38,324 nt of DNA from Candidatus Poribacteria bacterium (GTDB lineage: Bacteria > Poribacteria > WGA-4E > WGA-3G): contig JAJECD010000191.1 of NCBI GenBank assembly GCA_022822215.1, forward strand, positions 1-38,324. Direction: 5' to 3'. Below, one piece after another: positions 6,407-34,635 of the stretch. Each line of letters starts with the position of its first letter. Position 1 is the stretch's first letter. The notes below the pieces were generated by a model. It worked only from the letters and a program-made list of their open reading frames with translations. It was not told the origin of the DNA and ran no database searches. Position numbers and translations under genes: made by a program.

Positions 6407-9400
6407 GTGTCTACACAGATGTGTCCCGTTATCAAGAAAATGATGAAAACTTTCAAGTTCGCACTAATTTTAATTATTCTGACTGTAGGAGGGATTTGCA
6501 ACCCCGACTCTTATAGCGACGCTTTTATCTACCACTGGGAAATAGATGAAACCCCAGAAGGCAGTGAAAGTGCAACCGTAATCGAACCTGTAGAAGTGAC
6601 GTTGTTGGATGAACCTATACAGGTCGTATCCCATAGTGCATCCTTAGCGTTACTGCGAAAGTATTCTGTACATCTTGGCACTGAATGGAACGCGAGGCGT
6701 GCCTATAGGTTACTTCAAACTTTTGAATCTATACCGCAAGAGACAAATAACCCTTATGAGGAAAGCCCCACGGTGGAATCTTCTATATGGAGACTCAGTA
6801 ACCGACACATTCAAGGGGACATCACCGTCGAATACCAAGGCGGCCAACGAGTTGTTACTATTGCTCAGACGGTGTTTACTTATGCGCAGCCGCTGTTAGC
6901 TGAAATTGAAGGTGTACGAGGCAGGTATTTCTCTAAACGCCTCCATCGTGCAGTGGTCCGCTTTGTTACCGATAGCGGTGCAGATAGATACGCCCTTGAG
7001 CGGATATTACGAGAACGCTACGCCATCAGTATAAACATTCCAGATTATAGCCAACTCACACGACACACAACCGGAGAACATGCCGGACGTTTTTCTGGAT
7101 TCAAAAACGAAGAACTGATAGCATTGATCTCCATGCTTGAAGAATTCCCGATAGGTATGATCAAGACTCCGGGGCTCAACTATTTTGTTCGTCGGTTAGA
7201 TGGTACACCGCATCCGCTTTATCCGAGTGCCCCTGCAGTCGCCTGGCCCACTGCAGGCTATATTGAGTTTATGGAATCTGCTTTTAAGGAACAAGGTCTC
7301 GATTATATCCATCGCCTGATTCTTCACGAAAAAGCACACTTTTTATGGCATCATCTCTTTGATGCACAACTCAAACAGGACTGGATCGAGCTCGGCGGTT
7401 GGTTTGAGAATCCCGACGATCGAGACGGTTGGTCAACGACAAAACAGGTCGAGTTTGTTTCTGCTTATGCCCACGGCATCAATCCGAATGAAGATATGGC
7501 AGAAAGTATCAGTTATTACATTGTAAATCCTGACAAACTTCGTTCGCGTTCACCTGCGAAATATGAATTTATTCAAAATCGGATTATGCACGGTACACGC
7601 TATGTCTCACAGATTCGTGAAGATTTAACGTTTGAGGTTTACAACCTATACCCGGACTATGTATATCCAGGACGAATCGTACGGATTGATATAAAGGTTG
7701 AAGGTGAACCAGAAGAAGATAAACGCATAACAGTTGAGATTGAAATTCACGGCGAAAGTGAATTAGATGCTGCCCAAAGTGCTTATATCCGTGTTTTTAG
7801 TAACAAAGGCACTTTTTTTGACCTTGCCTGGATGACTCTGGTTGATGCAAATGGACAGCAGGTTGCTGCTGGACATATTTTACGTGGACAAGCGACATTA
7901 TCAAAATATGCAGCAGATGGCTATTGGAACCCTGACCAGATCCGAATCTGGGATGCCCAGGGGAATGAGAGACTTGCATCCCAAACCGATTATGGCTGGC
8001 AACTCCATATTGACAACCCGCTCGCGGATTGTGAGCCACCGGTTTATGTTAAAAACTCGATGACCCTTTCACTGTCGAAAGCCACTACACCTGATGGTAA
8101 ACCTTATCAGATCGTTACAGCAAGTTGGGAGGTCATAGAAAAGACAGGTATACAATTCGTTTATGCGGCTTTAAATGATGATTTAAGGGAGACACATTCA
8201 ATATATAGACAGTCTGAATATGGGGGTTATGATAGCAAGTTGGATAGAGTCGTTGTGAAATTCAAGTTCCCTGAGTATATGCCAAGTGGTCTTTACAGTC
8301 TTAACAATATTACTATGTCAGATATTGCCTTGAATGAATCCAGTGTCTATTTCACAAATGATGGTACAGATGAAGCACCAAAAACTATTAAGATAAAAAC
8401 AAATACCCCGGACCTTGAACCGCCTGTTTTGGATGTCAACCGTATTACTATTAAAGCTGAGCCTACGATACCAGAAGCACCCAATGGTGAAACAATTGTT
8501 GATATTTCCTTTAGGATTAAAGACAACATTAGCGGCTATGAAATAAGTAGCCTGAATTTAAGAGACCCTCAAGGGGTTATGCACCATTTTTATCACTATC
8601 CAGATGGATATGGAGGGTTGTATTTTAATGGCAACCCCACACTTTTTAAGGAATACCACCAGAGGATAGTCCTACCTATAGGCAGTGCCCCTGGGATATG
8701 GGGACTTGCCGAGATGACAGTATTTGATAAAGCAGGAAACACACAACGACATGACTTCACCGAAATTGTCCGTTTTGAGGTAGGAGAGGAACCTGTCTAT
8801 ACCCAATACGATGTAAATCAAGATGGCAAAGTGGACAATACTGATTTGGGTCTGATAGCAGCAGCCTTAGGAGAGAATCCACCTATCAATCCGCGGGTAG
8901 ATGTTGATGGGAGTGGAACTGTTGATGGCAATGACTTGCTACTCGTGATAGAAAATTTTGACGAATCATCAGATGCTGCCCCGTCGGCTATTACGGTTAA
9001 AATTATTGGGCTCAGTCGAGATCAGATTCAAGCACAGATTGACTTGTTACTCTCAACGAATAACAACTCACTTGCAATGCAACGGACATTGACATTCCTT
9101 TACAACCTCTTAGCATCGGTATCTCCCGACAATACACAACTGCTCGCTAATTATCCGAATCCCTGCAATCCAGAGACGTGGATACCCTACCAACTCGCAA
9201 CCAGCAGCGATGTACAGATTACCATCTATGACGTGAAAGGCATCGTGGTTCGCAATTTGGAATTAGGACATCAGTCGGCGGGTTTCTATACGGGTAGAAG
9301 CCGTGCGGCGTATTGGAATGGTCGCAACGGTTTAGGGGAGCAGGTCGCCAGTGGAGTCTATTTCTATCAGCTGCAAGCAGACGAGATTTCACCTATGCGG

Positions 9401-9421
9401 AAGATGGTCATTTTGAAGTAA
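6407..9421 (+). CDS. Large secreted HEXXH (gluzincin-like) metalloprotease candidate with dockerin-type module and T9SS-type C-terminal sorting domain
   Basis: Signal peptide MMKTFKFALILIILTVGG; the true start may be ATG 6419 or 6440. HEKAH at 7325-7339, with NEDMAES about 47 aa downstream. Dockerin pair DVNQDGKVDNTDL / DVDGSGTVDGNDLL. The last 90 aa, NYPNPCNPETWIPYQL...GVYFYQL...KMVILK, is a Por_Secre_tail-type domain. Confidence 0.85.
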   Translation: MSTQMCPVIKKMMKTFKFALILIILTVGGICNPDSYSDAFIYHWEIDETPEGSESATVIEPVEVTLLDEPIQVVSHSASLALLRKYSVHLGTEWNARRAYRLLQTFESIPQETNNPYEESPTVESSIWRLSNRHIQGDITVEYQGGQRVVTIAQTVFTYAQPLLAEIEGVRGRYFSKRLHRAVVRFVTDSGADRYALERILRERYAISINIPDYSQLTRHTTGEHAGRFSGFKNEELIALISMLEEFPIGMIKTPGLNYFVRRLDGTPHPLYPSAPAVAWPTAGYIEFMESAFKEQGLDYIHRLILHEKAHFLWHHLFDAQLKQDWIELGGWFENPDDRDGWSTTKQVEFVSAYAHGINPNEDMAESISYYIVNPDKLRSRSPAKYEFIQNRIMHGTRYVSQIREDLTFEVYNLYPDYVYPGRIVRIDIKVEGEPEEDKRITVEIEIHGESELDAAQSAYIRVFSNKGTFFDLAWMTLVDANGQQVAAGHILRGQATLSKYAADGYWNPDQIRIWDAQGNERLASQTDYGWQLHIDNPLADCEPPVYVKNSMTLSLSKATTPDGKPYQIVTASWEVIEKTGIQFVYAALNDDLRETHSIYRQSEYGGYDSKLDRVVVKFKFPEYMPSGLYSLNNITMSDIALNESSVYFTNDGTDEAPKTIKIKTNTPDLEPPVLDVNRITIKAEPTIPEAPNGETIVDISFRIKDNISGYEISSLNLRDPQGVMHHFYHYPDGYGGLYFNGNPTLFKEYHQRIVLPIGSAPGIWGLAEMTVFDKAGNTQRHDFTEIVRFEVGEEPVYTQYDVNQDGKVDNTDLGLIAAALGENPPINPRVDVDGSGTVDGNDLLLVIENFDESSDAAPSAITVKIIGLSRDQIQAQIDLLLSTNNNSLAMQRTLTFLYNLLASVSPDNTQLLANYPNPCNPETWIPYQLATSSDVQITIYDVKGIVVRNLELGHQSAGFYTGRSRAAYWNGRNGLGEQVASGVYFYQLQADEISPMRKMVILK

Positions 9422-10717: not shown

Positions 10718-11446
10718 TTGAAAAACAAAAACCTTTATCTTTTTCTTTTACTTTTCGTTCCAATTTTTTATCTGCCAGACACCTTTGCCCAAGGTTTTAC
10801 ACAATTGGGCTTGCCCGAAGGTGCTACAGCTCGCCTTGGAAGAGGAGGCATAGTAACGTCTGTGGCATATTCTCCAGATGGTAAGACGCTCGCCAGCGGG
10901 AGTTCCGGTCGGGTAGATTTATGGGATGCTGAGACCGGAGAACACAAGTTAACTCTTACCGATGGTGGTCGTTCAGTTGCATATTCTCCAGATGGTCGCA
11001 CCCTTTCAAGTGGAGGAACTTTGTGGGATGCGGAAACTTGGCACCGCAAGTTGACGCTTTCTGGGTTTTCAGGCTATGTTGATTCGGTTGTATACTCTCC
11101 AGATGGTCGCACCTTAGCAGGCGGTGGTTCCAATGGGATTCGTTTATGGGATGCGGAAACAGGACTTCTACCGAACTATCCCAATCCCTTCAACCCAGAA
11201 ACGTGGATCCCTTACCAATTAGCCACCAGCAGCGATGTGCAGATTACGATTTATGACATGAAAGGCACTGTCGTTCGCAATCTGGCATTAGGTCATCAAT
11301 CCGGGGGCTTTTATACCGGTCGAAGTCGTGCAGCGTATTGGGATGGCCGTAACGGTTTAGGGGAACGCGTTGCGAGTGGAGTCTATTTCTATCAACTGCA
11401 AGCAGATGATATTTCAACCATGCGCAAGATGGTTATTTTGAAGTAA
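10718..11446 (+). CDS. Secreted protein: three shortened WD40-like units fused to a T9SS-type C-terminal sorting domain
   Basis: TTG start preceded by GGAAAGGAG. Signal peptide MKNKNLYLFLLLFVPIFYLPDTFAQG. Three AYSPDG(K/R)TL..G....LWDAETG units. The tail NYPNPFNPETWIPYQL...KMVILK is 81/90 identical to that of the 1004-aa protein. Confidence 0.8.
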   Translation: MKNKNLYLFLLLFVPIFYLPDTFAQGFTQLGLPEGATARLGRGGIVTSVAYSPDGKTLASGSSGRVDLWDAETGEHKLTLTDGGRSVAYSPDGRTLSSGGTLWDAETWHRKLTLSGFSGYVDSVVYSPDGRTLAGGGSNGIRLWDAETGLLPNYPNPFNPETWIPYQLATSSDVQITIYDMKGTVVRNLALGHQSGGFYTGRSRAAYWDGRNGLGERVASGVYFYQLQADDISTMRKMVILK

Positions 11447-26890: not shown

Positions 26891-26922
26891 TTACGGTAAA
26901 ATCAAGCAAGGAAGGCAAATTG

Positions 26923-27843
26923 ATGCGGATGAATAGTCGGTTCAGTTATCTTATCATAAAAATCATTCTCGTTTTGGCGTATGGTTTTGTTATCAGCAGT
27001 TGTTCGCCGAAAGATAGCGAAAGTGTGGCGAGTAAAGCGGCTTCTCATGTCACCATCAAGAACAAAGGCTCGGATACAATGGTGAATCTCGCGCAGGCGT
27101 GGGCAGAAATGTACACAGGGGTCACCAGCAGTGCATCCGTAGAGGTATCGGGTGGCGGTTCTGGGACAGGTGTTGCTGCACTCATCAACGGCACCGTAGA
27201 CATTGCTAACTGCAGTCGCCAAATTAAACCCAAAGAGTTGGAACTTGCAACGCAAAATACAGGCAAAGCCCCTCAGGAATTTATTGTCGGGTACGATGCC
27301 CTTGCGGTTTATGTCCATCATGATACACCCATTGATAAGATTACAATCCCACAGCTCGCGGAAATCTATGGTGAAAACGGCACGATAAAAGAGTGGCGCC
27401 ATCTCGGTATCACGCATACTGCCTGTCCAAGCGACAAAATTATTCGCATCAGTCGGCAATCTAATTCGGGGACGTATTTCTATTTCCGAGAGGCACTTCT
27501 TGGGACAGATCGCGACTTTCGTATCGGTTCGTTGGATTTGCACGGCTCTAAAGATGTGGTGGAAGTTATTGGAAGAACGCCCTGCGCGATTGGCTACAGC
27601 GGTATGGGGTATGCCACCTCACATGTCAAAATGTTAGAAATCGCTACGACCTCCGATGCACCTTACTATGCCCCGACCCTTAAAAATGTCCTCGCGAAAA
27701 CCTATCCTATCGCCCGTCCGCTTTACATGTACGCCTTGGGTGAACCGACAGGCGCAATTAAAGCATATCTCGACTGGATTTTGTCTGCCGAAGGTCAAAA
27801 AATTGTCGAAAAACTCGGTTTCGTCCCATTAGAAAGTAACTAA
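26923..27843 (+). CDS. pstS: Phosphate ABC transporter substrate-binding protein PstS
   Basis: Signal or lipo-type N-terminus (...VISSCSP). GSDTMVNLAQAWAE..., SGGGSGTG and GYSGMGY are typical of PstS-family PBPs. It sits first in a pstSCAB-phoU context. Start is 26920 (TTG) or 26923 (ATG). Confidence 0.88.
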   Translation: MRMNSRFSYLIIKIILVLAYGFVISSCSPKDSESVASKAASHVTIKNKGSDTMVNLAQAWAEMYTGVTSSASVEVSGGGSGTGVAALINGTVDIANCSRQIKPKELELATQNTGKAPQEFIVGYDALAVYVHHDTPIDKITIPQLAEIYGENGTIKEWRHLGITHTACPSDKIIRISRQSNSGTYFYFREALLGTDRDFRIGSLDLHGSKDVVEVIGRTPCAIGYSGMGYATSHVKMLEIATTSDAPYYAPTLKNVLAKTYPIARPLYMYALGEPTGAIKAYLDWILSAEGQKIVEKLGFVPLESN

Positions 27844-27849
27844 AAATAT

Positions 27850-28755
27850 ATGAACATTCTACGCAAAAAAAGCACAGCGAACCTGCCGTTTTCCGAAACA
27901 GCAATTGAACTGTTTATTCGCTTATGTGGTATTAGTTCTATTCTCTTTGTATTCGGTATCTTTTTCTTTGTATTTCGCGAAGGGGCAGGCTTCCTTTTCA
28001 ACGGTTTAGACGTGAAGGAGTTTCTGACAAGTGTAGAATGGCAACCGACCTCACTCAATAATAAAAGATATGGGGCGTTCGCACTGATAGTTGGCACTTT
28101 TAGCGTCACGATCTTGGCGATGTGTCTCGCCGTTCCGTTTGGACTCGGCGCAGCGGTCTTTGTATCAGAATTCTGTAGCCCGAAGTTCAGAGAGACTTTC
28201 AAGATTATCATCGAGCTGCTCGCTGCGATCCCGTCGGTTGTGTGGGGGTTCATTGGATTGACGTTGATGAACCAATTGATTATTGTTGTCTTTAAAGCAC
28301 CCATCGGTTTAACGATGCTCAACGGGGGCATTATGTTGGCGTTGATGAGTGTCCCGATCATCGTTTCTATAGCGGAGGATGCCCTAAAAGCCGTACCAGA
28401 TTCGTATCGCGAGGCAGCGGAGGCACTCGGCGCAACCCGATGGCAGGTGGTTTACCGTGTGCTTCTCCCTGCGGCAAAAAACGGACTATTGGCAGCTGTC
28501 TTGCTCGGTGCCGCACGTTCTATCGGTGAAACAATGGCGGTCCTAATGGCAACCGGACACTCCGTTAACATTCCGTCGGGTCCGCTTTCTTGGATTCGCA
28601 CGCTAACCGCGACAATCGCCGCAGAACTCGGGGAAGTCGCCAGAGGCGATGAACATTACCAAGTCCTCTTTATCATCGGTATTCTCCTCTTTACTATCAC
28701 ATTTGTCGTGAACCTCATCGCTGATTTGGTTATCAAAGGCATCCGTCAAGAGTAA
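27850..28755 (+). CDS. pstC: Phosphate ABC transporter permease PstC
   Basis: EAA-loop region DSYREAAEALGATRWQVVYRVLLPAAKNGL...RSIGETMAV. Six hydrophobic spans. Confidence 0.9.
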   Translation: MNILRKKSTANLPFSETAIELFIRLCGISSILFVFGIFFFVFREGAGFLFNGLDVKEFLTSVEWQPTSLNNKRYGAFALIVGTFSVTILAMCLAVPFGLGAAVFVSEFCSPKFRETFKIIIELLAAIPSVVWGFIGLTLMNQLIIVVFKAPIGLTMLNGGIMLALMSVPIIVSIAEDALKAVPDSYREAAEALGATRWQVVYRVLLPAAKNGLLAAVLLGAARSIGETMAVLMATGHSVNIPSGPLSWIRTLTATIAAELGEVARGDEHYQVLFIIGILLFTITFVVNLIADLVIKGIRQE

Positions 28756-28798
28756 TACCTTGTGAAACAGAAAGGCATTTTAAGGATAATACGGAGAT

Positions 28799-29716
28799 AT
28801 GAACACTGACATACAGGTATCGCCACAAGAGATGTTTACGGAAACACCGATTGACCGGCAAAAACGGCGTATAGAAGGCATAATGCGGGTTTTCCTGCTT
28901 GTAATAACAAGTATGATGATTCTCCCGTTGCTTCTTATTATCGGCTATCTCCTTTATAAGGCGCTGCCGGTCCTCTCTTTTGAATTTCTGTTTACGAACC
29001 CGAAAGACAACATGCGTGCCGGTGGACTCTGGGCACCCTTCCTTGGAACGATCTATTTAGTGGTTGTATCTCTATTGGTGTCTGCCCCGATCGGTGTATT
29101 CGCTGCTGTGTATCTCAACGAGTATGCCCGTGAGAATTGGTTTACACGGATCACAAATTTGGCTGTTGTGAATCTGGCTGGCGTGCCGAGTATTGTACAT
29201 GCCCTGTTCGGGGTCGGTGCATTTGTCCTCTTTGCCGGTTTAGGTGAATCTATACTCGCAGCGTCATTGACGCTTGCAATCATGACGCTGCCGGTGATTA
29301 TCGCCAGTACAACGGAGGCACTTAAAGCCGTGCCGATGTCCTTTCGGGAGGCGTGCTGGAATCTGGGAGCGACACGCTGGCAAACAATTCGCCGTATTGT
29401 GCTACCCAACTCGATTAGCGGTATCCTGACGGGTGTGATTCTACAGGTATCGCGCGCAGCGGGTGAAACGGCACCTATCATGTTCACCGGTGCGGTTTTC
29501 TATAAGGCTATTGCAGAAGGAAACCTTTTCGCCTATAATATAATGGAACAGTGTATGGCACTCTCCCTACATCTTTTTACAATTTCAACACAGGTGCCAG
29601 ATGTTACCGAGGGAATTCCGTACGGGACTGCAATAGTGCTTGTCGCCACTGTTTTACTCGTCAACGCCGCATCAATTGCGCTAAGGGTTTATCTCCGAAC
29701 TCGAAAGAAATGGTAA
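28799..29716 (+). CDS. pstA: Phosphate ABC transporter permease PstA
   Basis: MSFREACWNLGATRWQTIRRIVLPNSISGILTG...RAAGETAPIMFTG. GGAG RBS. Confidence 0.9.
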   Translation: MNTDIQVSPQEMFTETPIDRQKRRIEGIMRVFLLVITSMMILPLLLIIGYLLYKALPVLSFEFLFTNPKDNMRAGGLWAPFLGTIYLVVVSLLVSAPIGVFAAVYLNEYARENWFTRITNLAVVNLAGVPSIVHALFGVGAFVLFAGLGESILAASLTLAIMTLPVIIASTTEALKAVPMSFREACWNLGATRWQTIRRIVLPNSISGILTGVILQVSRAAGETAPIMFTGAVFYKAIAEGNLFAYNIMEQCMALSLHLFTISTQVPDVTEGIPYGTAIVLVATVLLVNAASIALRVYLRTRKKW

Positions 29717-29720
29717 AAGG

Positions 29721-29776
29721 GTTGTCAGTTATCGGTTATCGGTTTTCAGTTAAGAGGAACTGACAACTGCTAACTA
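29721..29776 (+). repeat. Heptad-phased spacer with a 10-bp perfect inverted repeat between pstA and the channel gene
   Basis: gttgtca gttatcg gttatcg gttttca gttaaga ggaactg acaactg ctaacta. The inverted repeat is gttgtcagtt (29721-30) / aactgacaac (29758-67). Confidence 0.55.
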
Positions 29777-29783
29777 TAAAAAC

Positions 29784-30539
29784 ATGAATAAAGAAAGACT
29801 ACGATCCCTTGTTGAAGGGAGTGCATTTACCGCCGTCATCCAGTTTCTGATTCTTGCATCCGCTGTCGTTTTTGTGCTTGAATCTGATAGAGATGTGTGG
29901 GGATTAGCCGAGTATGCAACGCATTTTCTTATTTTAGACTGGTTGTTTTTTGTTTTATTTTCAGCAGAATATGTACTCCGGGTCTACATTGAGCCCAGAA
30001 AACGGGATTTCATTTTCAGTTTCTATGGTATAATTGATTTGCTCGCAATTTTACCGTCTCTGTTCCTTCTACCTGGATTTCGTGTGCTACGCGTTCTCCG
30101 ATTCTTGCGGATTTTCAGAATCTTCAAGGCGACGCGTTTTATTCTTGCAGTGGATCGGCTCGCATCAGCACTCCGTGGTATCCAGCAAGAACTCTTAGCA
30201 CTCGCTATTTTATCGTTGATGCTCGTTTATCTCGCTGCATGCGGGATACACTACTTTGAAAGAGATGTCCAACCTGAGGCGTTCGGGACTATTATCGATT
30301 CGATGTGGTGGGCTGTCGTGACCTTGACGACTGTCGGTTATGGAGATGTCTATCCAGAAACAGGAGGTGGAAAGGTTTTCACTGCGCTCGTTACCCTTAT
30401 TGGCGTAGGGCTTATCGCGATTCCTTCTGGATTGTTGGCATCGGCTTTGACTGAGGCGCGCGTGGAACGCGAAATAGCAGAAGAAATAGTGGAGGAAATT
30501 AAAGAAGAAATAACAGAGGAAACGAAAAAAGAAAGTTAA
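29784..30539 (+). CDS. Voltage-gated (6-TM, KvAP-like) potassium channel
   Basis: S4 with basic residues at every third position (FRVLRVLRFLRIFRIFKATRF). Selectivity filter TTVGYGD. S1-S3, S5 and S6 hydrophobic spans. Acidic EEI-repeat tail. Confidence 0.88.
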   Translation: MNKERLRSLVEGSAFTAVIQFLILASAVVFVLESDRDVWGLAEYATHFLILDWLFFVLFSAEYVLRVYIEPRKRDFIFSFYGIIDLLAILPSLFLLPGFRVLRVLRFLRIFRIFKATRFILAVDRLASALRGIQQELLALAILSLMLVYLAACGIHYFERDVQPEAFGTIIDSMWWAVVTLTTVGYGDVYPETGGGKVFTALVTLIGVGLIAIPSGLLASALTEARVEREIAEEIVEEIKEEITEETKKES

Positions 30540-30578
30540 TCTACGGAAAACAGGAATATAAAAAGTGGATAAAACATA

Positions 30579-31364
30579 ATGAACACGAATAGCGATAGGC
30601 GTTCACACACGGCACCTATCATTGAAATCAATGACCTAACGGTCCGGTACGGCGATAAGCCCGCGCTGAACGGAATCTCTTTTGATGTGTATAAAAATGA
30701 GATTCTCGGTATCATCGGCCCCGCGCAGTCGGGTAAGACTACGCTCTTGAAGGTTATCAACAGAACGCTGGAATTTACGGCAGGAACGACCGTAGAAGGT
30801 TCTGTCAAACTCGATGGCGTAGATGTCAACACTGTTGGTGATGTTTATGGCTTGCGTCGAAAGATCGGTATGGTGTTGCCGTTGCCGGTAGGACTACCCC
30901 TTTCAATATACGATAACGTCGCTTTCGCACCACGGACAGCAGGCGTTCGGGCAAAATCAGAATTAGACGAAATCGTTGAGCGGTGTCTACAGCAAGCTGC
31001 GCTCTGGGATGAAGTAAAAGATAGGTTGAATACGCTGGGGACGAAGCTCTCAGGTGGACAACAACAACGCCTTACAATCGCTCGGGCGCTTTCGCATCAA
31101 CCGGAGATCCTCTGTCTTGATGAGTTTTCGATTGCCGTTGATCCTATTACAACGATGCGTATTGAAGATGTCCTGAAAGAGTTACGTGCGGAAATGACGA
31201 TTCTTCTGGTTACCAACCTTGTTCAACAGGCGAAACGGTTAGCAAACCGCACGGCTTTTATGCTCAATGGCGATCTCGTTGAGATTGATACAACCGATGT
31301 AATTTTTTCTGACAGCCCGGGAAGTCAAGCCACTTACGATTACGTCAACGGCACTTTTGGATAA
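30579..31364 (+). CDS. pstB: PstB paralog 1: signature motif intact, Q-loop Gln and switch His lost
   Basis: GPAQSGKT, MVLPLP (no Q), LSGGQQQRLTIARAL, LCLDEF..VDP, VTNLV (no H), C-terminal Y.NG.FG like PstB. Confidence 0.85.
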   Translation: MNTNSDRRSHTAPIIEINDLTVRYGDKPALNGISFDVYKNEILGIIGPAQSGKTTLLKVINRTLEFTAGTTVEGSVKLDGVDVNTVGDVYGLRRKIGMVLPLPVGLPLSIYDNVAFAPRTAGVRAKSELDEIVERCLQQAALWDEVKDRLNTLGTKLSGGQQQRLTIARALSHQPEILCLDEFSIAVDPITTMRIEDVLKELRAEMTILLVTNLVQQAKRLANRTAFMLNGDLVEIDTTDVIFSDSPGSQATYDYVNGTFG

Positions 31365-31366
31365 AA

Positions 31367-32152
31367 ATGGATCCGCAAAATATGCCCCTAAATTATAGCA
31401 TTGAAACTGAAAATCTCAGTCTCTGGTACGGTGATTTTCAAGCACTCATTGATGTCAACGTCAGGATACCCGATGGTCAGATAACTTCTCTGATTGGGCC
31501 TTCTGGCTGTGGGAAATCGACGCTCCTTCGCTGTTTTAATCGGGTCAACGAGCGTTACGGCAACGTTACGACCAAGGGGAAAATTGAGGTGCTCGGAAAA
31601 AATATCTACGATTCCGATGTCTCTTTACCAGAACTCCGAAAAGCCGTTGGGATGGTGTTCCAACGCCCGAATCCATTGCCGATCTCGGTGTATGAGAATA
31701 TCTTGTTCGGTTTGCGGATTCACTCGCCAATGGGCAGCCTCACGCGGACAGAATGCGACGAGATCGTTGAGGAGGCACTGACCTCCGTTTTCCTCTGGGA
31801 GGACCTAAAGGATAGATTGAAGGTCCGCGCAACATCACTCCAGCTTGAACAGCAACAGAAACTCTGTATTGCGCGGCTATTACCGCTTAAGCCAAAAATT
31901 ATCCTCATGGATGAGCCGTGCTCCGCATTGGATGCCAAAGGAACGCTCGCTGTTGAAGAACTTATGGAAGCACTTGCAGGAACGTACACGTTCTTAATTG
32001 TAACGCATAATATGGCACAAGCGCGACGCGTGAGTAAAGAGTGTATCTTCATGCTCCTTGGTGAACTTATTGAACATAGAGAGACACAAGCCCTTTTCCA
32101 GACACCAGAACACCCAAAAACTGCAGACTATGTGCAAATGCGGTATGGATAG
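31367..32152 (+). CDS. pstB: PstB paralog 2: catalytic motifs intact, signature motif degenerate
   Basis: GPSGCGKSTLLRCFNR, MVFQRPNP, LQLEQQQKLCIARLL in place of LSGGQQQRL, ILMDEPCSALD, VTHNMAQA. Confidence 0.9.
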   Translation: MDPQNMPLNYSIETENLSLWYGDFQALIDVNVRIPDGQITSLIGPSGCGKSTLLRCFNRVNERYGNVTTKGKIEVLGKNIYDSDVSLPELRKAVGMVFQRPNPLPISVYENILFGLRIHSPMGSLTRTECDEIVEEALTSVFLWEDLKDRLKVRATSLQLEQQQKLCIARLLPLKPKIILMDEPCSALDAKGTLAVEELMEALAGTYTFLIVTHNMAQARRVSKECIFMLLGELIEHRETQALFQTPEHPKTADYVQMRYG

Positions 32153-32169
32153 CCACGACAGCCAACACC

Positions 32170-33009
32170 ATGAATTCCTTAATGAGCCGTCCGAATCCGA
32201 AACAAAAATTCGCTTTGCAGAGTATCGCACTCCTTACGCTTGGGGTGGTATCCGTTCTGGTATGGAATGTTCTGAAAAAGACCTATCTGTCTGATGTACA
32301 GGTATTATCGGTAGCACGCGTATCCGATCCGTTACCGAACCTGTTTGGGGACATCTATTTTTTCTTATCAATCAGTTTCCTTGGCGTTTTGCTGGGTATT
32401 ACATGTGCCTTTTACTTGGAAGAGTGGTTACCAGAAACAAATTGGGTTCGATGTTTGATTGAGGGGCAAGTCAGTATTTTAAGCGGTGTGCCTTCGCTTT
32501 TGTATGGGCTTTTGGTCGTTACAGTCTTCTTGCCTTATAGTGGTGCCTTCCAGAGAACGCAAGGATTTCCGCCTGCTGGGGACCTGAATACAGCTTCACT
32601 ACAGGTGTCGTCTTTTCAAGGCGATACGACGCTATTCTACATTGCCGTATTAACTTTCGTGTTATTGGTGGTACCGCGGGTTATTAAGGCGACCCAAGAA
32701 GCCCTTCGATCGGTCCCGATACCGATACGTGAATCCGCTTACGCACTCGGGGCAAACCGATGGCAAGTGTTGACAAAACATGTCGTGCCGCTTTCACTTC
32801 CTCGTGTGGTTGCTGGTGCGTGTCGTGCGATGTCTTGTGCTTTGGCAGTATCGGCACTGTTCATCGGTATTTATATTTCCGGGTATACAATTCAACCCGG
32901 GCAGATGTCCGGCAGGTTTGCGCTGTTTTTAGGGGCAGCTTTGTTGTTAAGTATCTTTTCAAGTTTCCTGAGCCAGAGGTATCCTCTTGCTTCGACCCGG
33001 CACATTTAA
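32170..33009 (+). CDS. Additional PstA/PstC-like permease-family membrane protein (divergent)
   Basis: EALRSVPIPIRESAYALGANRWQVLTKHVVPLSLPRVVAG resembles the Pst EAA loop. The following GET motif is absent. About 5-6 hydrophobic spans. Confidence 0.7.
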   Translation: MNSLMSRPNPKQKFALQSIALLTLGVVSVLVWNVLKKTYLSDVQVLSVARVSDPLPNLFGDIYFFLSISFLGVLLGITCAFYLEEWLPETNWVRCLIEGQVSILSGVPSLLYGLLVVTVFLPYSGAFQRTQGFPPAGDLNTASLQVSSFQGDTTLFYIAVLTFVLLVVPRVIKATQEALRSVPIPIRESAYALGANRWQVLTKHVVPLSLPRVVAGACRAMSCALAVSALFIGIYISGYTIQPGQMSGRFALFLGAALLLSIFSSFLSQRYPLASTRHI

Positions 33010-33083
33010 CCTCTACTGGATGAATTCTTAAGTCGGAGGCATATTCTACCTCTAACGTGCGGATTTCAAAAACGGTGCCGATT

Positions 33084-33851
33084 ATGAAAACTGAAAAAGG
33101 GCAACCTATTCTAAACGTTCGTAATCTAAATATCTGGTATGGTGATAAGGATATTCTGGGTTCTCTCTCTTTTGAAGTTCAAGAAAAACAGGTAACGGCT
33201 TTCATCGGGCCCGCTAACTGCGGTAAAAGCACCCTTGTCCGGTGCTTCAATCGATTAAACGACTTTACACCAAACTTCAAATTCACCGGTGAAATCCTTT
33301 TTAAGGGGAGATCTTTGTATGCCGAGCAGGATGCGACGACTGTGCGGAAACAGATCGGGATGGTGTTCCGAAGACCCACCTTATTCCAAGGGTCTATCCA
33401 CGAAAATGTCGCTTATACCGCTCGGATTTCAAACGTAAGTCGAACCTCCGAACTGAATGCTATTGTTGAGAAAAACCTACGAAGAACTGGACTCTGGAAT
33501 GAGGTCGAGGGCATCTTAGACGAAACACCAGCGCAATTGTCCACGGGACAACAGCAGCTTCTCTGTGTCGCACGCGCCTTGGCTGCGGAACCAGAGGTTT
33601 TGATATTCGATGAGCCGTGTGGTGAGCTCGATCCTATTGAAACTGTTAAGATTGAAACGCTTATGCGGGAGTTGGCAAACGATTGCACACTTATTTTTGC
33701 TACGAATAAAAGAAGGCAAGCCGCTCGCGTTTCTGATGTCGCAGGGTTTCTCTACGGTGGCGAGTTAATCGAATTTGGAGCAACGGAGAGAATCTTTACC
33801 AACCCGCAGGATAGTAGAACGGAACAGTATGTAACAGGTAGGATGGGATAA
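33084..33851 (+). CDS. PstB paralog 3: probably non-catalytic
   Basis: GPANCGKSTLVRCFNR, MVFRRP (Q to R), LSTGQQQLL, LIFDEPCGELDP, FATNKR (no switch His), C-terminal EQYVTGRMG. Start set to ATG 33084; GTG 33057 is possible. Confidence 0.8.
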   Translation: MKTEKGQPILNVRNLNIWYGDKDILGSLSFEVQEKQVTAFIGPANCGKSTLVRCFNRLNDFTPNFKFTGEILFKGRSLYAEQDATTVRKQIGMVFRRPTLFQGSIHENVAYTARISNVSRTSELNAIVEKNLRRTGLWNEVEGILDETPAQLSTGQQQLLCVARALAAEPEVLIFDEPCGELDPIETVKIETLMRELANDCTLIFATNKRRQAARVSDVAGFLYGGELIEFGATERIFTNPQDSRTEQYVTGRMG

Positions 33852-33993
33852 AATTTAGCGACTTGCTGTTAGCGGTTAGGGGTTAACGAAAAAAATATAA
33901 AGGAACTTTATAGCCCCAGCCCAGTATAAATGTACCAAATATCCTGTTTCCGACAACGGAGGAAACAGGCCCGGAAGGCTAATAGTTAAAAAA

Positions 33994-34635
33994 ATGTTAG
34001 CGAATGAAATTAGAGAACTTCAGTACAAACTTTTGGAAATGGCAGGACTTTCCGAACAGATGCTACGCCAAGCCATCGAATCCGTTTTAACGCGGGACGA
34101 GGCATTAGCGGAGACAGTCATCGCGACGGATGATCAGGTGGATCAATTTGAAAACGAAATCGAAGCAGCGTGCATCCAATTAATCGCACTCCATCAACCC
34201 GTGGCATCTGAACTCCGTTTTCTGACAGTGGTGATGAAAATCAGCCACGACGTTGAACGACTTGCAGATAAGAGCGTTGCTATTGCGAGACGGAGCCTTG
34301 AATTATTAGAGTATCCGCCAGTCAAACCCTTCGTGGACCTGCCCTACGTAGCACAAGTGATTCAAACTATGGTAAAAGATGTACTGGATGCCTTCGTCAA
34401 CCGTAACGCCGAACTCGCTTTAGAGGTTCGGGAACGTGACAACGAGGTTGACGATATCTATGAAAAGATGCTCCATGAACTGCTTACCATTCTCAGCGAA
34501 CATCCGGCACTCATCCCACCGGGTATCAGTATCTTACTCCTTTTCCGGCATCTCGAACGCGTAGGCGATCTCGCAGTAAATATTAGTGAAGAGGTCTACT
34601 ATCTCGTCAAAGGCGACATCATCCGACACTCTTAG
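33994..34635 (+). CDS. phoU: Phosphate signalling complex protein PhoU
   Basis: 213 aa. Two repeated three-helix units with D(D/N)xVD motifs (ATDDQVDQFENEIE; ERDNEVDDIYEKM) and a RHLERVGD-type helix. Confidence 0.9.
   Translation: MLANEIRELQYKLLEMAGLSEQMLRQAIESVLTRDEALAETVIATDDQVDQFENEIEAACIQLIALHQPVASELRFLTVVMKISHDVERLADKSVAIARRSLELLEYPPVKPFVDLPYVAQVIQTMVKDVLDAFVNRNAELALEVRERDNEVDDIYEKMLHELLTILSEHPALIPPGISILLLFRHLERVGDLAVNISEEVYYLVKGDIIRHS

Follow-up and report, generated by a model that had tools for sequence, protein, structure and literature searches.

Complementary motif losses in adjacent PstB paralogs of a Candidatus Poribacteria pst locus predict a heterodimeric phosphate importer ATPase that pairs a consensus ATP site with a degenerate one

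We analysed a stretch of 38,324 nucleotides from a Candidatus Poribacteria bacterium (contig JAJECD010000191.1, assembly GCA_022822215.1; hereafter the window), which carries a pst phosphate importer locus with adjacent, non-identical genes for the ATPase subunit PstB. The locus spans 26920-34635 and consists of nine + strand genes separated by gaps of 2-142 nt. It opens with pstS, encoding the phosphate-binding protein (26920-27843; TIGR02136, 219 bits, above the cut-off of 207), followed by the permease genes pstC (27850-28755; TIGR02138, 270 bits, above the cut-off) and pstA (28799-29716; TIGR00974, 256 bits) and by a K+ channel gene. Next come pstB1 (30579-31364) and pstB2 (31367-32152), each encoding 261 residues, with 2 nt between the pstB1 stop codon and the pstB2 ATG. 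A divergent permease gene (pstA'), a third PstB paralog (pstB3) and phoU, encoding the phosphate signalling complex protein (33994-34635; TIGR02135, 204 bits, above the cut-off), complete the cluster. The ATPase genes thus have the genomic setting of PstB: pstS-pstC-pstA precede them and phoU follows, all on one strand and with short gaps. An earlier reading of this DNA (the original prediction) had reported two adjacent PstB paralogs; their adjacency and coordinates are exact, but it overlooked PstB3 and pstA' downstream. A scan of the operon for promoters and terminators gave counts at chance level.

We aligned the paralogs with MAFFT to E. coli PstB (sequence of PDB 9k3x chain C), and all motif regions were gap-free and unshifted. 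PstB1 carries a Walker A of GPAQSGKT (30717-30740; GPSGCGKS in E. coli), the E. coli signature LSGGQQQRL (31047-31073), a Walker B of LCLDEF with D181 and E182 (in ILCLDEF, 31107-31127; LLLDEP in E. coli) and a D-loop of IAVDP (31131-31145; SALDP in E. coli). Its Q-loop, however, reads GMVLP (P101; in GMVLPLP, 30867-30887) instead of GMVFQ (Q98), and its H-loop VTNLV (N213; in VTNLVQ, 31209-31226) instead of VTHNM (H210), so that both the Q-loop Gln and the switch His are gone. PstB2 has all catalytic motifs intact, namely GPSGCGKS (31496-31519), GMVFQ with Q99 (in GMVFQRP, 31649-31669), Walker B ILMDEP (31898-31918) and VTHNM with H214 (in VTHNMA, 32000-32017), next to a D-loop of SALDA (31922-31936), but its signature is LQLEQQQKL (31838-31864), in which Ser is replaced by Gln and the two Gly by Leu and Glu. 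The motif readings of the original prediction are therefore exact for both proteins. A misalignment concealing shifted Q, H or signature residues is ruled out by the gap-free motif regions.

The top profile match of all three paralogs was the PstB equivalog TIGR00972, with 280.1 bits for PstB1, 313.6 for PstB2 and 300.9 for PstB3. All three miss its curated cut-off of 343.2 bits and are thus divergent family members; PstB2 is 48% and PstB1 41% identical to E. coli PstB. A complete consensus set of ATP-binding cassette (ABC) motifs in a single polypeptide is lacking in PstB1, PstB2 and PstB3.

In ABC dimers, every ATP sits between one subunit's Walker A/B, Q-loop and H-loop and the other subunit's signature. 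Structures of E. coli PstSCAB show such head-to-tail ATP sites for PstB, and in them PstA and PstC each carry a single docked PstB (PMC12976172). When PstB1 and PstB2 are paired in this way, all non-consensus residues of the pair map to one composite site, which combines the Q-to-P and H-to-N changes of PstB1 with the LSGGQ-to-LQLEQ change of PstB2. The reciprocal composite site, made of the catalytic side of PstB2 and the LSGGQ of PstB1, contains all consensus residues.

The same pairing recurs widely. Using a degenerate DNA pattern for L-x-L-E-[Q/E]-Q-Q-[K/R]-L-C-I-A-R, we searched GTDB at one genome per species and detected the PstB2-type signature in at least 120 species, which span more than a dozen phyla; the genome counts that follow refer to the matches listed, which include 117 PstB2-type genes. 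Carriers are found in Poribacteria, Planctomycetota (including the cultured Saltatorellus ferox), Verrucomicrobiota, Acidobacteriota, Gemmatimonadota, Gammaproteobacteria (Accumulibacter, Thiodiazotropha, Chromatiaceae, Lysobacterales), 'Deltaproteobacteria'/Myxococcota, Nitrospirota, Ignavibacteria, Rhodothermales, Binatia, Firestonebacteria, Fibrobacter, KSB1 and Elusimicrobiota. An automated rule defined the PstB1 type by an intact LSGGQ, Pro, Ala or Asp for the Q-loop Gln and Asn for the H-loop His, and required its gene on the same strand, immediately upstream; it identified such a gene directly 5' of 99 of the 117. Inspection added four more (L038, L045, L089, L094), and 13 PstB2-type genes lie at a locus edge where the upstream gene is not assessable, which brings the adjacency to 103 of 104 assessable loci. 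The sole assessable locus clearly without an upstream PstB1 comes from Endomicrobium (L115). In most of the 120 genome loci the operon order is pstS-pstC-pstA-B1-B2, with phoU before or after, and therefore the pair is the motor of a genuine Pst system. A search of a plasmid collection for annotated PstB1-type genes of cultured organisms returned only canonical PstB, at <50% identity.

The reverse scan gave the same picture. Here we searched metagenome contigs with a pattern for the PstB1 stretch D-E-F-S-I-A-[V/I]-D-P, which leaves the Q-loop, H-loop and signature outside the pattern, and obtained at least 120 contigs, 23 of them too short downstream to assess. Among the contigs listed, PstB1 had SGGQ and the H-loop Asn wherever visible, and the Q-loop residue was Pro in 107 and Gly in one. 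All 96 visible downstream partners had a signature other than LSGGQ: LQLEQ (38), LSLEE (27), LSLEQ (6), LTLEQ (5), LLLEQ (4) and, more rarely, LxLD, LxLE[K/A/G], LQLGP or LQLAE. The same partners retained the Q-loop Gln (96/96) and, where visible, the H-loop His (92/92), and the two genes were adjacent in 96 of the 97 assessable loci. Gene-call neighbourhoods of six loci (L001, L003, L004, L006, L127, L129) are consistent with the pairing, and the PstB2-type protein of L129 adds a further signature variant, LSAEQ. Together, the genome and metagenome scans show the pair to be a conserved unit whose members are almost never apart, whichever of them is searched for, far more consistently than chance would give.

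The two partners also vary in concert. In a subtype that we call P, PstB1 has the Q-to-Pro change, LDEF, IA[V/I]DP and VTNL, and is paired with a PstB2 carrying ...QQKL and VTHNMA (86 pairs among the genome matches listed); one extra P-type PstB1 has a PstB2 partner with Arg for Lys (..QQRL). In subtype A, PstB1 has Ala or Asp for the Q-loop Gln, DEP, SGLDP and VTNN, and its PstB2 carries ...QQRL and VTHNMQ (12 pairs). Neighbour-joining supported P-type PstB1 with a bootstrap of 1.0 (0.97 without the motif columns), PstB3 with 1.0 and all PstB2 with 0.8 (0.4 without the motif columns). P-type and A-type PstB1 were joined with a bootstrap of only 0.17, so a single origin of all PstB1-type proteins is not established; either one origin or two parallel ones is possible.

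Some of these loci carry further genes of the same families. L040 (6631-7458), L064 (68-994) and L093 (3005-3763) also have a fully canonical pstB no more than a few kb away from the B1-B2 operon, and therefore homodimeric and predicted heterodimeric Pst systems coexist there; in L040 the canonical gene has its own pstC-pstA and phoU, and the full set directly follows B1-B2. A metagenome-assembled genome of Acidobacteria (L073, 600-1484, - strand) has a third, very degenerate PstB-like gene after B1-B2, with GAAGSGKS, no Q-loop Gln, the signature LTTSM and the H-loop ATNDLK, showing that degenerate nucleotide-binding domains (NBDs) were added to the paired-PstB system more than once. On one short metagenome contig (L143, 375-1287, - strand) a PIN-domain protein gene and a small partner gene, resembling a toxin-antitoxin pair, occupy the usual place of PstB2 after PstB1. 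In several operons from outside Poribacteria, a gene just upstream of or within pstSCA-B1-B2 encodes PhoU fused to a low-molecular-weight phosphatase/ArsC-like domain (PF01895 + PF01451; L001, 2713-3837; L003, 1027-2151; L006, 5142-6233), and in L001 and L003 a polyphosphate kinase gene follows the pst operon.

We then compared conservation within each paralog, using the 120 closest database homologs of each. All 120 PstB1 homologs share GPAQSGKT, MV[L/Q]P, LSGGQQQRL, LCLDEF and VTNL. LQLEQQQKL is present in 117 of the 120 PstB2 homologs, the other three having xLEQ variants, and GELDP and TNKRR occur in 120 of 120 PstB3 homologs (SNKRR in one). LSGGQQQRL was invariant in every PstB1 examined, and the A-loop Tyr, the Walker A Gly/Lys/Thr and the Walker B Asp-Glu were kept in 107-109 of 109 PstB1-type sequences. 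In the PstB2 signature, positions 2 (S/Q/T/L/P) and 5 (Q/E/K/A/G) drift, and Leu and Glu/Asp are held at positions 3 and 4. The invariance of LSGGQ in PstB1 together with the drift of the PstB2 signature amounts to an asymmetric constraint, as a heterodimer would predict.

Nonsynonymous and synonymous differences per site (pN and pS) against five Poribacteria orthologs were 0.09-0.14 and 0.63-0.84 for pstB1, 0.05-0.09 and 0.63-0.82 for pstB2, and 0.15-0.26 and 0.68-0.79 for pstB3, the value of 0.26 being that against the most divergent ortholog. For the three ATPases pN was 0.05-0.16 in most comparisons, with synonymous sites near saturation (0.63-0.84). pstB1 and pstB2 are under strong purifying selection.

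Taken together, our findings suggest that the genes pstB1 and pstB2 probably encode two different ATPase subunits belonging to a single PstS-PstC-PstA phosphate importer, which would act as an obligate heterodimer with one hydrolytic site. The heterodimer would be obligate because either homodimer lacks a complete site: a PstB1 homodimer would be without the Q-loop Gln and the H-loop His at both sites, and a PstB2 homodimer would have LxLE in place of SGG at both. In the proposed mechanism, PstB2, as the catalytic subunit, would contribute Walker A/B, Q-loop and H-loop to the consensus site and PstB1, as the signature donor with degenerate catalytic motifs, its LSGGQ; this site would hydrolyse ATP and power the inward/outward switch. 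The second site, to which PstB1 supplies its intact A-loop Tyr and both Walker motifs and PstB2 its LQLEQ, probably still binds Mg-ATP, since these PstB1 elements, Walker B with its Asp-Glu, are conserved, and would hydrolyse it poorly or not at all, serving as a stable clamp or in an allosteric role, like its counterpart in heterodimeric ABC exporters. Each cycle would then cost about one ATP. Since every NBD docks on a single permease, PstA or PstC, the asymmetry would have a fixed relation to the membrane domains. We infer both the formation of the heterodimer and the loss of hydrolysis at its second site from the motifs and the co-occurrence of the genes.

The original prediction that the losses pair up into one competent and one degenerate site is thus backed by the co-occurrence of the two genes, the co-variation of their subtypes, the asymmetric constraint and the purifying selection. 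Its description of the second site as dead needs qualifying: the site is degenerate by its motifs, but PstB1 keeps the catalytic Glu and all ATP-binding residues. Like transporters with one consensus and one degenerate site, the pair consists of two different, co-encoded and co-inherited NBDs.

Several observations weigh against an obligate heterodimer with one hydrolytic site. The catalytic Walker B Glu, retained in 109 of 109 PstB1-type sequences, is usually replaced in the degenerate sites of exporters (by Asp, Ser or Met), Glu to Asp being the typical deviation (PMC7756269), and an H-loop His-to-Asn change in NBS2 of MRP1 kept wild-type-like transport (PMC7756269), so the degenerate site may have residual activity. 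In E. faecalis, one tandem PstB replaces the other when overexpressed (PMC12096839), and in Poribacteria PstB3 could be a competing partner. Furthermore, two loci from Endomicrobium/Elusimicrobiota (L115, 1242-2669; L021, 422-1957) have a lone PstB2-type gene with LTLEQQQRL followed by phoU, with no pstSCA or PstB1 within the available upstream flank (1.2 kb and 0.4 kb, respectively). Elusimicrobiota is the only lineage observed, among the matches listed, in which the pair is apparently split; the partner gene may be located elsewhere, or PstB2-type proteins may function as homodimers.

We considered whether a PstB2 homodimer could power transport despite its odd signature, PstB1 being an accessory or regulatory protein, for example a signalling partner facing PhoU/PhoR, and not a motor. 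This would fit E. faecalis, where PstB2 is essential and an excess of it can stand in for the accessory PstB1 (PMC12096839), although both E. faecalis paralogs are motif-intact, so the precedent is not directly transferable. It would also fit the lone Elusimicrobiota genes and the closer resemblance of PstB2 to canonical PstB. However, such a homodimer would have LxLE for SGG in both sites, and in other ABC proteins a Gly-to-acidic change at the second signature Gly, such as CFTR G551D, abolishes ATP-dependent function. Moreover, the invariant LSGGQQQRL of PstB1 needs a cause, which signature donation to the PstB2 site provides, and the pair is almost never separated; we regard a PstB2 homodimer motor as unlikely. 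It is also conceivable that the two proteins do form a heterodimer in which both composite sites hydrolyse ATP and the substitutions retune kinetics or coupling instead of silencing a site. Such an arrangement is favoured by the retention of Walker A, the A-loop Tyr, the Walker B Asp and the catalytic Glu in practically every PstB1 member, and by the tolerance of Asn for His in MRP1. Yet the same site has also lost the Q-loop Gln (to Pro, Ala, Gly or Asp), the signature opposite it has Leu and Glu/Asp for two glycines, and the free drift of signature positions 2 and 5 is what is expected when the gamma-phosphate contact is no longer selected. Two active sites therefore seem quite improbable. 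Finally, decay of redundant copies after tandem duplication, or assembly error, could in principle produce altered motifs, and all three paralogs do fall under the TIGR00972 cut-off. Their reading frames are all intact, however, their pN is far below pS, and identical 'degenerate' residues are fixed over more than a dozen phyla and hundreds of independent assemblies, which refutes pseudogenes or sequencing errors and leaves this explanation a negligible chance.

A further reading adds to the heterodimer explanation and does not exclude it. The window encodes three paralogs, not two, and PstB2 may have two alternative partners. pstB3 (33057-33851, +) has GPANCGKS (33207-33230), GMVFR with R105 (in GMVFRRP, 33357-33377), LSTGQQQLL (33537-33563), LIFDEP (in VLIFDEP, 33597-33617), GELDP (33621-33635) and ATNKR with N217 (in ATNKRR, 33699-33716). 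Its losses resemble those of PstB1 (Q to R, H to N), and its signature, LS[T/I/R]GQ, keeps the Ser and the second Gly, so PstB3 could be an alternative signature donor for PstB2. It forms its own clade (bootstrap 1.0), is 39% identical to PstB1 and 47% to canonical PstB, and is not a recent copy of PstB1. The preceding gene, pstA' (32170-33009, +), encodes a divergent PstA/PstC-like permease (TIGR00974, 98 bits, below the cut-off of 193; Pfam BPD_transp_1). By alignment to 9k3s_B, PstA' keeps the EAA coupling loop (32731-32766) and the Arg equivalent to R220 of PstA, and S-C-A replaces the G-E-T of PstA/PstC (CRAMSCA, 32821-32841). The two genes are always adjacent, between pstB2 and phoU, in eight loci that are all from Poribacteria or closely related metagenome contigs; two Poribacteria-labelled loci (L087, L111) have only pstA-B1-B2, and among the loci compared neither gene was found outside Poribacteria-type loci.

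Speculatively, PstA' and PstB3 may be a module that offers PstB2 an alternative partner, or else one that is linked to PhoU and does not transport. PstB2 would pair with either PstB1 or PstB3, with PstA' and PstB3 replacing PstA and PstB1, or PstC and PstB1, to give a second transporter form; alternatively, PstA', PstB3 and PhoU would make up a non-transporting phosphate-sensing complex. Consistent with this, both pstA' and pstB3 are under purifying selection. The second pstC-pstA-pstB-phoU set that directly follows B1-B2 in some other taxa, such as L040, suggests an origin from a second Pst system, of which the Poribacteria module may, as a speculation, be a repurposed, reduced remnant. On the other hand, any specific pairing is conjecture, and PstA' evolves fast, with 39-51% identity among orthologs. 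The missing G-E-T Glu says little as well, since mutation of E224 in E. coli PstA had no effect on transport (PMC12976172). We therefore hold the alternative-partner reading only tentatively, as a possibility that falls short of probable.

The predicted PstB1/PstB2 heterodimer can be set against several known systems. Heterodimeric ABC exporters (TAP1/TAP2, TM287/288, BmrCD, PatAB, CFTR, MRP1) likewise have two non-identical NBDs and one all-consensus site, while the other site joins a non-consensus H-loop with the non-consensus signature of the partner (PMC7756269). In contrast to them, PstB1/PstB2 belong to a type I, binding-protein-dependent importer in which the NBDs are separate polypeptides, as are the permeases, their degenerate site keeps the catalytic Glu and loses the Q-loop Gln, and the PstB2 signature has changed from LSGGQ to LxLE[Q/E], compared with the LSxGx and LAAGQ types of exporters. 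The likening to exporters in the original prediction holds, but importers can have degenerate sites too. Those of the CUT2 type, whose NBDs are fused (RbsA, NupO, MglA), are binding-protein-dependent and have one of two ATP sites degenerate (PMC11466899). They differ in that both NBDs lie in a single polypeptide of another ABC family that handles sugars or nucleosides, and their losses concern the Walker A Lys and Walker B, unlike those of PstB1/PstB2.

The importer of E. coli, PstSCAB2 (PDB 9k3x, 9k3s, 9k3y; PMC12976172), shares the operon core pstS, pstC, pstA and phoU, the NBD family at 41-48% identity and the phosphate-coordinating Arg/Glu motifs in PstA and PstC, but has two identical PstB and two consensus ATP sites. 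In the window, pstA has its EAA loop at 29348-29383 and SRAAGET at 29450-29470, the counterpart of E. coli PstA R220/E224 by alignment to 9k3x_A; pstC has its EAA loop at 28411-28446 and the R-x-x-G-E-T motif (ARSIGET) at 28513-28533. Adjacent non-identical pstB pairs in pst(-phoU) operons are found in Firmicutes (E. faecalis PstB1/PstB2, B. subtilis PstBA/PstBB) and in Nostoc punctiforme (pstB2/pstB3). The E. faecalis proteins have non-equivalent functions, and their Walker A and LSGGQ motifs, like their H-loop, are identical to those of E. coli PstB (PMC12096839); B. subtilis PstBA/PstBB have been modelled as a heterodimer (PMC11466899). Unlike the motif-intact E. faecalis proteins, the Poribacteria pair has complementary losses and neither member is expected to work alone; motifs were compared for E. 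faecalis, and the contrast with the Nostoc and B. subtilis pairs concerns gene arrangement only.

The degenerate-site principle of exporters, degenerate sites in fused-NBD importers and tandem pstB genes in Firmicutes and Nostoc are already known, the last being termed 'unique and unstudied' in a 2025 paper (PMC12096839). A literature search turned up no account of PstB pairs that have lost complementary motifs, the nearest being the E. faecalis tandem pstB and the B. subtilis PstBA/PstBB models, in agreement with the original prediction that such an architecture had not been described for phosphate importers. The chances seem about even that these pairs represent a large unrecognised class of Pst importers in more than a dozen phyla, with a single hydrolytic ATP site and obligately different, complementary PstB subunits, which Poribacteria would have further elaborated with an impaired third NBD and its own permease, possibly for PhoU-linked phosphate sensing. 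Such a class would take in the wastewater phosphate accumulator Accumulibacter, the lucinid symbiont Thiodiazotropha and many Planctomycetota, Verrucomicrobiota, Acidobacteriota and Gemmatimonadota, and its breadth across phyla and direct testability add to its interest.

If so, the paired-PstB system would be a natural type I ABC importer of a 1 ATP : 1 substrate design. Whether two hydrolytic sites are needed, and how much ATP is spent per substrate, has been debated for decades on engineered mutants of the maltose and histidine importers. A natural and widespread importer with a fixed consensus and a fixed degenerate site would offer a clean experimental system for the stoichiometry question and could show the role of a degenerate site in an importer. 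The heterodimer would also present two non-equivalent faces to the signalling partner PhoU, which bears on how Pst reports phosphate status. Databases label both subunits 'phosphate ABC transporter ATP-binding protein', and they are therefore treated as redundant copies in metabolic models and phosphate-uptake studies (Accumulibacter, sponge symbionts, soil phyla).

The gap between pstA and pstB1 is occupied by the gene for a voltage-gated-type K+ channel (29784-30539, +; Pfam Ion_trans, 3e-33, and Ion_trans_2), with a TVGYGD filter (30330-30347) and an Arg-repeat S4 segment (30081-30128). A K+ channel gene lies at the same position in six other Poribacteria loci (L002, L010, L029, L046, L079, L103), and it was absent from all non-Poribacteria loci examined. 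One conceivable explanation for its placement is that K+ flux is coupled to the uptake of phosphate or polyphosphate.

The names of close homologs agree with a placement in Candidatus Poribacteria, and the flanking genes, some of them for WD40-repeat proteins, do not speak against it. The window also encodes eukaryote-like repeat proteins, which have often been reported for sponge-associated Poribacteria. Their genes, all on the + strand, specify a large WD40 beta-propeller protein (96-1754), a 1004-residue protein with dockerin, FlgD-Ig and Por-secretion-tail domains (6407-9421) and a smaller WD40 protein that likewise has a Por-secretion tail (10718-11446).

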